Shown: positions 59,076 through 62,860, counted from the stretch's first letter. The stretch: 64,000 nt of DNA from Octopus vulgaris (GCA_951406725.2 OX597822.1:83576001-83640000); one strand, 5' to 3'. The notes: generated from the sequence alone by a model not told the origin. Translations and numbers: made by a program.

Positions 59076-59312
59076 TCTAAATGGCAAAGGTAGATAATCA
59101 CCTATTGTTTACCTTTAGCGAGGTATTTCCCTCCCCATATTTTGATGAGTTCTTAGGCCAACGGGTTTGTGGCCTGACGATATTCCATAAGGCCAAACAC
59201 TTTATGGACACAAAACCTAGGGTAACCCTTTAAACCGGCCTCCCCTATTATAATATTAACTGCTTTTCTCCGGATTTATGTTTTTTCTACAAACAGAAAC
59301 TGGAAGAAACTT
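59076..59312 (+). mobile_element. PLE-derived terminus (family P3) with a hammerhead-like motif at 59162-59238
   Basis: ggcCTGACGA-tattccataa..ttatggacac-AAAA-cctaggg-TA-acc; homologous to the reverse complement of 62430-62508; (TA)n on both sides. Confidence 0.7.
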
Positions 59313-60364
59313 GTATATATATATACATACATACATACACATATATACATATATATGTATGTATGTATGTATATATATATATTTGTTTATATATATATAT
59401 ATATATATATATATATATATATATATATACATATTTGTTTATATATATATATATATATATATATATATATATATATATATATATATATATATATATATAT
59501 ATATATATATATATATATATACATACATATGTACATATATATACTCGTACACATGTATGTATGTGGTGTCTGTATGCATGCGTTTATGTATGTAAACCAG
59601 TCATAAGAACGACAACAAACCGCAAGATTCTTTTTAAACTTATATATGTTCAATCGATAAGAAATCCTACTCCATACAAATGGACCTAACATCACGACAT
59701 AATTCCACAACAATATTAAATCATCAATTATTATCTTCTACGTTCTGATTTTGTGAACAGCTGACCTAAATGTCTTTCCCGTTTTCTTCTATTCTTTTGA
59801 TGTTCTTGAAAAATTCATAGATGTAATAAAATTTGATATTTCCTCTCAACTATGAAATAGGTTGTTGTGTATCAGTGAAAGACTTTCTAGTCTTTGCTTG
59901 TCAAAAACACTTGTATTATGCGATATATTACATCAATCACATATATTTTAAGACGATGTGATGTTAGAGTTTAGGTAACTACTGCACACTAGATCATATG
60001 TTTTTGATGTTTCACTGATGTTGTTATTTATGTGCAATCTGGTTTAATCGATCAAAAGTGTTCTGCCCATGACAGTCCCTTTCTATTGTGTATAGCAAAC
60101 TAAATTTTGTTGTCTAAGACGCCATGTTGTGATATAAATTTCGCTTTACTGGTCTTTGTAACGAATGCACGATCTCACACACGTTATTTCCAGGTGTGTA
60201 ATGTAAATTCCGATTGTTCTAAACATACTTCGATGAAAACGCCTGACCGCATCACTCGATCTGGGAATCGAAATTACGATGTTGCGATCGTGATTGCAAC
60301 ACCCTAACGAATAAGCCACGCGTCTTCGTTGCTGTTTATAAAGGTAGAACATTTCTAAGGAACC

Positions 60365-60570
60365 AATCTGGCAGATTCTTTATGCCCAACGGACAAAATG
60401 CTGCTAAGCATTTTATCTGTGTTCACGTTCTGACTTCAAATTCCGACTTTGCCTTTCAACTATTCGGAGTCGATAGAGTAAATACCAGCTTAACTCTGGA
60501 ATCGAAGAAATCATCTTAGTCCTTTTCCCAAAATTGCTGGCCTTGTGCCAAAATTTCAAACCCAGTATAT
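60365..60570 (+). mobile_element. SINE family A, diverged
   Basis: ctggcagattc..cacgttctgacttcaaattccgactttgcctttca..ggagtcgata..tggccttgtgccaaaattt. Confidence 0.8.
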
Positions 60571-60964
60571 CAATCATTTCTTCTAATGTACATCTGCATA
60601 ATGACAATGCATGTCAGTTGTTTGCTGACTTAATACAAACTGTATATTGTTGGAAATTTCAGCAACTATCGTTTCCATCGAAAAGAATCCTTTGAACTTT
60701 GAGAGTTTTGTGTCTTTGTAGCCGTCAGTAAATCCATCACTTACAGAGTATGCATCCAACTATTTATTTGTTTATCTATTTATTTATCTATTTATTTATA
60801 TATTTATTTATTTCCAGCACATTGAGATACCATCAAGATAACACTGATCGCAAGCTTCCAGCTCGTTACTTCGAATCAGAAACTAATTCTGTGACCCCTT
60901 CTATAACCATTCAGCATTCGGATTATTCGGTCAAATATAATACTTATTTATTCGTATTGTTTGG

Positions 60965-61285
60965 AGTTGTTCCTTTGATCGGTTACGGCTGCAGAGAACT
61001 TCTAATATCAACATTAAAATAAAATATTTACTGCAACCAATGAGACAATCATGTCTTCAACTGTTTACAGCTGTGCACTTTACACCATCATTGGTTATCT
61101 GGTTGTTATTGAGAGCGTAACAGAAGACCCCGTATTTATAAATGATTCCGCTATAGTTGCAACCAATAACTTGTGACAAATTCTGTGTCCCTAACTGCTT
61201 AGTTGTTCCATTGATCAGTTACGGCTGCAGAGCCCTTATTTAGATCAATATTAAAATATAATACTTATTGCAATCAATGACACAA
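60965..61285. repeat. Local direct repeat, about 85 bp, period 236 bp
   Basis: agttgttcc.ttgatc.gttacggctgcagag...ttaaaata.aata.tta.tgcaa.caatga.acaa at 60965 and 61201. Confidence 0.85.
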
Positions 61286-61974
61286 AATCTTGTTTTCCTT
61301 ATTTTATTCGACACAATGAATCTCAACAAACCAAACTAGAATACGTTTAATCATAACTTAAATAAACTTTGGTAGCAGAACTAAAATCAGAAGCAATCTA
61401 TTTCTTCTGACAGTGATTAAACTAAAAGGCGCGTGAATCTAAGTTTCTACTGTTTCTAAACTTGTCCACAAATATATTATTTGCGTGAAAGAACGAACTG
61501 TCAACGAATTTAAAGTCAGAAATGAATTACAGTCAGTTGAAGAAAAATTATCAAGTTGTTTGTAAGAGACTGAGAAAGACATGTTATCAACAAGTATTTG
61601 ATTACATGGGTAATCAATAGAAGTTTACGTAAATCAATGTCATCTGGAATGTGTTTACCGTAGTTCTAATTATTAAGAAAACTTAATGTTATATTTTCGT
61701 ATAATTAAAAGTGTGATTTTTAAACAAATAACCGAGTATTGTACAAGACTGCTATTTCATGGGTTGCAATTATTATATTATATCTAAGATTTGGTTACTG
61801 GTTTTGTTTCATACCGTTCGCAAGAAGTACAATTATTTATGACGTACGTCAATTCAAAGAGTATTCTATCAAAAATAAAATTTCCAAATTATACGGCTGT
61901 GTTTAGAGTTCTGACTGTTCTTATGGTCACACTAAGTTCATAAAACTGATACTTTCGACCCTAAAGCGAAGGAA

Positions 61975-62362
61975 TATATATGTATATATATATATATATC
62001 TGTATGTATGTATATATATGTATATATATACATATACACACACACACACATATATATATATATGTATGTATGTATATATGTATATATATGTATGTATGTA
62101 TATATATATATATATATATATATATATATGTGTGTGTGTGTGTGTGTATATATGTATATATATATATGTAATGTATGTATGTATATATATATATGTGTGT
62201 GTATGTATATATATATATATATATATATATATATGTATATATATATATATATATATATATATATATATATATATACATATATATATATATATATATATAT
62301 ATATATATATATATATATATATATATATATATATATATATATATATATATATATATATATAT
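61975..62362. repeat. Long compound (TA)/(CA)/(TG)/(TATG) microsatellite
   Basis: Direct reading. Confidence 0.95.
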
Positions 62363-62860
62363 GGTTTCGTCAGTAAATCATAAATCAGAAAGAGTTATAG
62401 ATCAGTAGATTATTTAAAGATAATTTTCGCCGGTCTATGAGGCTACCCAGGGTTTTGCCTCCATAAATCTCTTAGCTTTACAACGTCACGTCAGGCCCTA
62501 ATGACCGGTTGCCCATAGCTTCTCTTCATAATGAAGAGAGAAAAGACCTCGTGGTTAGTTATCAAACACACAGACAAAGGAGAAGGGTCGAGTGCAAACG
62601 ATTGGCTCCGTTAGACCGCTGCTCGGTCAGATTGCGTGTCCCACGATTTCAGGAGGAGTTGCGTGATGTGTAAACACGGTTCGAATCTTCCGTCCTCGAA
62701 TTTAAGCTGTCCCTCGGGCAGAGGGAATTCTTTAATATCTTGCCCATTCCGCTTTGCACAGCTTGCAACGATTGCTGCCGTTGATGTAGGGGCCCTTTTT
62801 TTCTGGGATCTTCTATGAGATTACGTATGGAGTCCCTGTGTCCTTCAGGCACCATACAGG
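62363..62860 (-). mobile_element. 5'-truncated Penelope-like element: GIY-YIG endonuclease C-terminus, 3' region with a hammerhead-like motif (62430-62508), ending at (TA)n
   Basis: The minus strand gives VWCLKDTGTPYVIS*KIPEKKGPYINGSNRCKLCKAE / ILKNSLCPRDSLNSRTE / PCLHITQLLL across frameshifts, matching the W.LKD..Y.I.WKI..PY.NGS.RC.LC..E..LN.R.E..C.H pattern of PLE endonucleases. Confidence 0.85.

Follow-up and report, generated by a model that had tools for sequence, protein, structure and literature searches.

Two decayed hammerhead motifs with A at position 12 in Octopus vulgaris as probable old copies of a Penelope-like family that mostly retains G12

The hammerhead ribozymes of Penelope-like elements (PLEs) are, according to the main text of Cervera and de la Peña (2014; PMC4209133), type I motifs located in the PLE pseudo-LTR, with a palindromic helix III that requires a dimer and for which cleavage as a dimer was proposed, with a long helix II that has an unpaired base at its 5' end, and with several sequence families per genome; copies are mostly solitary and truncated, and opposite-strand pairs lie about 100-700 bp apart. 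In Neptune/Nematis-type PLEs, as presented in the main text of Craig et al. (2021; PMC8557442), a reverse transcriptase (RT) is followed by a C-terminal GIY-YIG endonuclease with a cysteine motif before it, the hammerhead is found near the 3' end, and 5'-truncated as well as inverted copies and insertion into TA microsatellites occur. Exchange of the general base G12 for A in the full-length hammerhead of satellite tobacco ringspot virus RNA made cleavage about 10^6-fold slower (main text of PMC2553840). Natural core variants of hammerheads exist, with no G12A among those met in the main text of PMC3088659, and insertion in vitro still took place with catalytic mutants of an anole PLE hammerhead, as stated in the main text of PMC11167929. 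Animal retrozymes, the subject of a 2026 preprint (10.64898/2026.07.22.740005, main text), are of interest here as context only. The main texts searched contained neither a natural conserved G12A hammerhead nor a report of the family described here. Lünse et al. are said to have dealt with dimeric PLE hammerheads in 2017.

The motifs analyzed here come from a stretch of 64,000 nucleotides of Octopus vulgaris DNA (GCA_951406725.2 OX597822.1:83576001-83640000), hereafter the window, and from their relatives in the assembly, which comprises 2.8 Gb and is rich in microsatellites. They make up one more PLE hammerhead family, as their architecture and context match the known ones: the traits listed above for the PLE hammerheads and for the Neptune/Nematis-type elements recur, with dimer cleavage as a prediction and the cysteine motif as a putative one, and Neptune/Nematis is a candidate label based on features seen by eye. 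The octopus family differs from the hammerheads in the main text of PMC4209133, including the metazoan min-HHRs, by a helix II of about 11 bp instead of 7-8 bp, by a helix I that is seemingly extended by an outer GGCC/GGCC stem, and by a variable pair 10.1-11.1 where G10.1-C11.1 was reported to be highly conserved. Unlike the PLEs in the main text of PMC8557442, many copies of the octopus family have their endonuclease interrupted by a long in-frame stretch of low complexity. The change at position 12 is the same general-base substitution as in PMC2553840 (main text), but there it was engineered in the laboratory, whereas in octopus it has arisen naturally and is scattered among dead copies. 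The features of the window that concern the two motifs (copy 1 and copy 2) are the following.

About 59000-59075, no strand: (TA)n-rich tract 5' of the element of copy 1, from the sequence
59085..59264, + strand: short PLE 3'-end (pseudo-LTR) remnant holding copy 1, without coding part, to which relatives align
59156..59240, + strand: copy 1, decayed type I hammerhead motif, bounded by the outer helix I arms on both sides
59316..59545, no strand: (TA)n-rich microsatellite 3' of the element of copy 1, from the sequence
61975..62362, no strand: (TA)n-rich microsatellite directly 3' of the element of copy 2, from the sequence
62367..62861, - strand: entire PLE remnant, truncated at the 5' side, with endonuclease end, 3' region, hammerhead motif and tail, from blastn
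62428..62513, - strand: copy 2, decayed type I hammerhead motif, from its core and comparison with its subfamily
62638..62857, - strand: C-terminal remnant of a PLE GIY-YIG endonuclease, broken, with one in-frame stop and frameshifts

A preliminary description of the window had reported hammerhead-like strings at 59162-59238 (+) and 62430-62508 (-), both with A in place of G12, and both strings and both substitutions are present in the sequence. The core of copy 1 (+) has C3 at 59174, C11.1 at 59211, A12 at 59212 and H17 at 59224, and that of copy 2 (-) has C3 at 62494, C11.1 at 62457, A12 at 62456 and H17 at 62444. Copy 1 belongs to a subfamily with a purine at 11.1, from whose majority it differs at 18 places over 90 columns, and 4 of its 19 tested pairs are broken, 10.1-11.1 and 1.1-2.1 among them. 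Copy 2, a member of the pyrimidine-11.1 subfamily, shows 17 differences from the majority over 90 columns, 2 broken pairs out of 19 tested, and a second core change beside A12, a U at position 9 (A9U). An intact hammerhead core is therefore absent from both window copies, given A12 in each, U9 in copy 2 and the unpaired 10.1-11.1 and 1.1-2.1 in copy 1. Neither folds better than its own shuffles (z of -0.44 and -0.55), no hammerhead appears among the 150 of 225 Rfam matches listed for the window, and an Rfam search of seven loci returned 0 families at the gathering score. A profile search of the 64-kb window yielded no copies beyond these two, and a relaxed core scan, which gave many chance matches, recovered copy 2 and missed copy 1. 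In three other samples, contigs run across copy 2 and have no listed difference within the motif; for a run from a more distant organism, coverage at copy 2 consisted of the flank 62971-63400 only. Copies 1 and 2 are decayed copies and are classed as non-working members of the hammerhead class; considering the roughly 10^6-fold slowing by G12A (main text of PMC2553840), both are predicted to be inactive.

The two copies lie in different kinds of remnant. The element of copy 1 measures about 180 nt, relatives align to positions 1-172 or 1-180 of the query with 74-84% identity, and it sits between two (TA)n tracts. In the case of copy 2, the preliminary description had placed one motif directly 3' of a PLE endonuclease, which is borne out: copy 2 begins about 125 nt 3' of the broken GIY-YIG end. 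This endonuclease remnant, 62857-62638 (-), matches the endonuclease end of two family copies (L212, E 3.5e-10; L217, E 1.8e-9) and, weakly, the intact PLE-like open reading frames P0004 and P0011. With the whole remnant, 62367..62861 (-), blastn found identities of 73% over 483 nt (L010) and 67% over 514 nt (L020). The (TA)n tract 61975..62362 is likely the insertion target of this element.

In order to count the states of position 12 genome-wide, a 25-nt anchor pattern was employed, with bases fixed on both sides and four free positions, namely the helix II CpG, 11.1 and 12. It gave 308 exact matches compared with 0 for a reversed control, so that the repeat is not due to chance. This pattern favors less decayed copies and misses both window copies, and among its 308 matches position 12 is G in 273 (89%), A in 30, T in 3 and C in 2, which leaves 35 non-G cases. 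CAAAA accounts for 16 of the 308, and by tallies made, like the 308-match counts, by hand from the listed rows, all 16 fall into the class whose helix III loop is T (T-loop class, n=87), which is the loop class of copy 2 and contains 66 further matches with G12. Among the nearest relatives of copy 1, G12 is kept in 39 of 44 rows, copy 1 being the sole one with CA. When loci were collected by way of the endonuclease, that is, not through the ribozyme, 30 of 35 held an anchored motif, which places the motif at the end of the element, on the 3' side of the GIY-YIG domain, and their 44 motifs comprised 37 with G12, 6 with A and 1 with T. All core boxes are in the majority state across the family: in 80 gap-free rows, a set enriched for non-G12 rows, C3 is found in 73, U4 in 79, G5 in 74, A6 in 78, G8 in 64, A9 in 74 and G12 in 62, and the type I core is present at the family level. 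Two earlier patterns (14 GAAA, 1 CAAAA) carried a minority letter upstream, which made the comparison unfair, and are superseded by the anchor counts.

According to the preliminary description, a majority of genomic copies with the G12 box, given there as CGAAA, would refute a variant A12 core, and most keep G12 in each of these collections (273/308, 39/44 and 37/44). As about nine-tenths of the counted copies retain the catalytic G, the common A most likely reflects ordinary mutation of inserted copies rather than a novel type of ribozyme. Its proposal of CGAAA as the ancestral box holds with respect to the G12 majority and fails with respect to CGAAA as the usual form, since most G12 copies read TGAAA, GGAAA or AGAAA; position 11.1 differs among subfamilies and itself decays. 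The other option raised there, a lineage still mobile with a variant or inactive A12 core, is not supported, G12 being the majority in both subfamilies.

For the fold, 80 gap-free rows out of 265 were used, a set that leaves out copy 1, which has a gap. Of all cells belonging to 23 named pairs, 87.4% were paired, whereas controls with slid positions reached 29-51%. Two-sided changes numbered 92, most of them in helix II, against 52.6 in shuffles, and the covariation score was 0.264 compared with 0.201 for shuffled and at most 0.118 for slid alignments; because the structure was drawn from the same sequences and related rows inflate the counts, and with some two-sided changes representing CpG decay, this covariation supports the fold but does not prove it. 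In 76 of 80 rows the bases at 10.1 and 11.1 pair, in five combinations (G-C, G-U, A-U, U-A and U-G) that differ between subfamilies. Found beside a constant G12 majority, these five types indicate indirectly that the fold and G12 persisted during subfamily divergence, as would fit selection on the ribozyme of the active parent elements. Helix II is about 11 pairs long and bears a single bulged A per strand, helix I is made up of four inner pairs plus the outer GGCC/GGCC stem, and helix III consists of four pairs with a 1-nt loop and is palindromic, with 91.9% of its cells paired. With a 1-nt loop, helix III cannot close in a monomer. The pairing layout is kept despite divergence of the loops, as the preliminary description had noted for its two copies. 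The helices covary between subfamilies, and the ancestral ribozyme fold is therefore taken to be real.

The distribution of A12 follows the sequence context. When 11.1 is C, C11.1-G12 is a CpG, so that CAAAA can recur independently in old copies. In the T-loop class (n=87), the dinucleotide 11.1/12 is CG in 24, CA in 16, TG in 37 and other in 10 cases, and at a non-catalytic control CpG two bases upstream the respective numbers for the same 87 matches are 27, 21, 28 and 11; the proportion of CA to CG does not differ between the two sites (Fisher p=0.83). A12 is found in 16 of 40 matches that have C at 11.1 and in 14 of 263 that have another letter there (p=2e-8); the latter figure assumes that CG is absent from the 207 A-loop matches with G12, as it is from those among the matches listed. 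G8 decays alike: it has become A in 14 of 80 rows, and C precedes it in 10. Divergent pairs of motifs at the same locus, which likely come from one insertion, show at 11.1/12 the combinations CA/TG (8), CA/CA (4), CG/TG (4), CG/CG (4), TG/TG (19) and CA/CG (0), and the CA/TG pairs are explained by a CG template whose two arms decay on opposite strands. The share of CA/CA (4/12) is similar to that at four pooled control CpGs (21/81; p=0.73), and the CA/CA pairs mostly differ at a neighboring CpG. Several observations count against decay: there is no CA/CG pair among the 12 CA-bearing pairs; the window has a CpG observed/expected ratio of 0.88, which is a mild depletion only; and A12 rows, many of which were chosen by exact anchors, have about as many other core changes as G12 rows (0.50 and 0.53) and fewer broken pairs (1.6 and 2.4).

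The parallel decay of a G-AAA box through CpG mutation, which the preliminary description had offered as one of its readings, is supported as to decay; the CpG route is well supported for A12 in copy 2 and only possible for copy 1. The subfamily of copy 1 has mostly A or G at 11.1, so that two changes would be needed; a close relative (L130) has C11.1-G12, from which a CpG route may have started. ADAR editing as origin of A12 was set aside, as it yields A>G and not G>A. At several CpG sites of same-locus pairs, the two arms tend to keep CG together or lose it together (CG/CG and CA/TG are frequent, CA/CG is rare), and this concordance between arms may reflect germline methylation that differs from locus to locus.

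Whether copies with A12 share descent was analyzed on a tree of 180 out of 214 non-redundant rows, 34 having been left out because they were truncated or matched poorly at the 5' side; positions 11.1/12 were masked together with seven CpG-prone sites, and 106 columns were used. Copy 1 is found inside a group of 71 rows with a support of 100, nearly all of which have a purine at 11.1, and copy 2 lies outside. With the two copies on opposite sides of this branch, their common CAAAA was not inherited together. Placed on the tree, A12 requires 32 changes for 43 rows compared with 38.5 in shuffles (1 in 300 as low), and CA alone requires 19 compared with 23.9 (2 in 200), whereas three of four control CpGs are without clustering and one clusters slightly. 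This clustering is the main result against the decay reading; it is read as reflecting that CA arises only in the C11.1 subfamily, the two causes not being fully separated. CA rows are at a distance of 0.31 from each other and of 0.32 from CG or TG rows. In AU tests, a single CA clade including copy 1 gave p=0.005, and two random subsets without copy 1 gave p=5e-6 and p=0.063, so that on 106 columns rejection of a CA clade is not uniform. The compensatory C2.1-G1.1 pair of copy 2 is shared by three other rows, all with G12, and T9 occurs together with G12 in 4 of 6 rows, which means that no second core change accompanies A12.

With regard to the elements themselves, the best identity between distinct copies is 87% (over at least 150 nt), and the longest open frame among the 150 candidates scored out of 2641, obtained with a 36-aa endonuclease query, has 321 aa. 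None of 20 long-frame loci, a sample that leans to the subfamily of copy 1, has an intact RT-endonuclease frame, and the genome searches found no young or intact element of the family. These values indicate that the family is old, and G12 in the parents is deduced from the majorities. Two loci (L219 and L225) have RT remnants upstream of the endonuclease, and the RT of L225 used as query retrieved 37 relatives of 531-953 aa with E values down to 3e-74, three of which show by eye the layout of RT followed by GIY-YIG. Among the protein relatives of the RT a single one is named, an entry from Octopus bimaculoides with 60% identity; a Pfam search of five proteins gave no informative match, and a cysteine-rich motif before the endonuclease was seen by eye in broken frames. 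In 190 loci, 69 divergent (head-to-head) motif pairs were found, 26-1273 nt apart.

Two further observations concern these copies. In head-to-head pairs (for example L033, L064, L067, L078, L111 and L113), the inversion point is often inside or just 5' of the hammerhead motif, and in many pairs each arm holds little beyond motif and tail. The low-complexity insert, rich in Asn, Ser and Thr and about 100-190 codons long, is often in frame in many endonuclease copies, where the in-frame share is biased because loci were picked for long open frames; it is located between the first GIY-YIG strand and the YIG motif, for example in L212:4370-5332 (+), and is also found in L213, L215, L217, L219, L220, L222, L223, L225, L226 and L229-L231, and the intact relatives P0001, P0004 and P0011 have a short spacer only at this site.

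Taken together, copies 1 and 2 are very probably old copies of a type I hammerhead from the 3' end of an endonuclease-bearing Penelope-like family that mostly has G12, with A12 likely gained separately in each after insertion. G12 is the majority in both subfamilies, the helices covary between subfamilies, and the motif lies 3' of the endonuclease. The active parent elements would have encoded a G12 ribozyme, with cleavage predicted after H17 and in a dimer, as a palindromic helix III with a 1-nt loop forms only between two copies. Insertion would often have occurred as 5'-truncated head-to-head pairs in TA microsatellites, and the inserted copies would then have decayed neutrally, without selection. 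In copy 2, C11.1-G12 would have been a CpG whose deamination likely gives TG or CA, with CA reading as G12A, and in copy 1 A12 likely came about independently, through a simple transition or through CpG decay of an uncommon variant with C11.1. It is improbable, although some weight is kept for it because the anole mutants in the main text of PMC11167929 still inserted in vitro, that a minority of templates already had A12 when copied, in which case ribozyme-dead elements would have been mobilized in cis or in trans and some A12 copies would share descent. CA in both arms of four or five same-locus pairs (the count depends on the filters), the weak clustering of CA on the tree and the one AU subset that did not reject a CA clade (p=0.063) speak for such copying; the CA/CA share equals that of control CpGs, the CA/CA pairs mostly differ at the adjacent CpG, CA rows lie about as far from one another as from rows with CG or TG, and copies 1 and 2, being in different subfamilies, cannot be linked in this way. 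That the CA/CA head-to-head pairs record mobility of PLEs in vivo without working hammerhead cleavage is unlikely too.

It is very unlikely that A12 is a functional variant core, working through a different general base or with the help of a metal, and favored by selection in one lineage of the elements. The two window copies considered by themselves would fit such a core, as would those A12 rows whose helices look intact, with all pairs holding and the remaining core complete in 2 of 14 rows, and natural core variants are known, G12A not being among those in the main text of PMC3088659; however, A12 is present in just 30 of 308 matches and tracks CpG context, lacks an accompanying second core change, costs about 10^6-fold in a full-length hammerhead (main text of PMC2553840), and occurs in two window copies that are both further damaged. 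Hardly any probability is given to the motif being a chance look-alike within a repeat that never was a ribozyme: cleavage is a prediction, the window copies fold no better than shuffles and the Rfam results were as given above, but the paired fraction in the 80 rows, the excess of two-sided changes, the five types of pair 10.1-11.1, the majority state of all core boxes and the match in position and form with the published PLE hammerheads (main text of PMC4209133) all count against it. As found, G12A is of little significance, representing decay in one more PLE hammerhead family, and the lesson for sequence scans is that CAAAA in old copies can mimic a conserved variant; a mobile A12 lineage, had there been one, would be relevant to the question of whether PLEs require the hammerhead.

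Some minor observations were made in the window and at single loci. A separate remnant at 50972-51163 (-) of the window, 8 kb from copy 1 and on the opposite strand, matches the N-terminus of intact PLE-like open reading frames (P0001 and P0003, E about 1e-6). At L198:1311-1494 (-), three short tandem partial motif copies lie beside a full one on the other strand, all belonging to the A11.1 subfamily, and at L123:1-720 (+) an uninterrupted frame of 240 aa near a motif copy resembles a host membrane protein and is possibly a processed gene copy. A 304-nt repeat forms an inverted pair in the window (42326-42629 and 54724-55027), 12 kb apart and 89% complementary, which probably represents two copies of another interspersed repeat.
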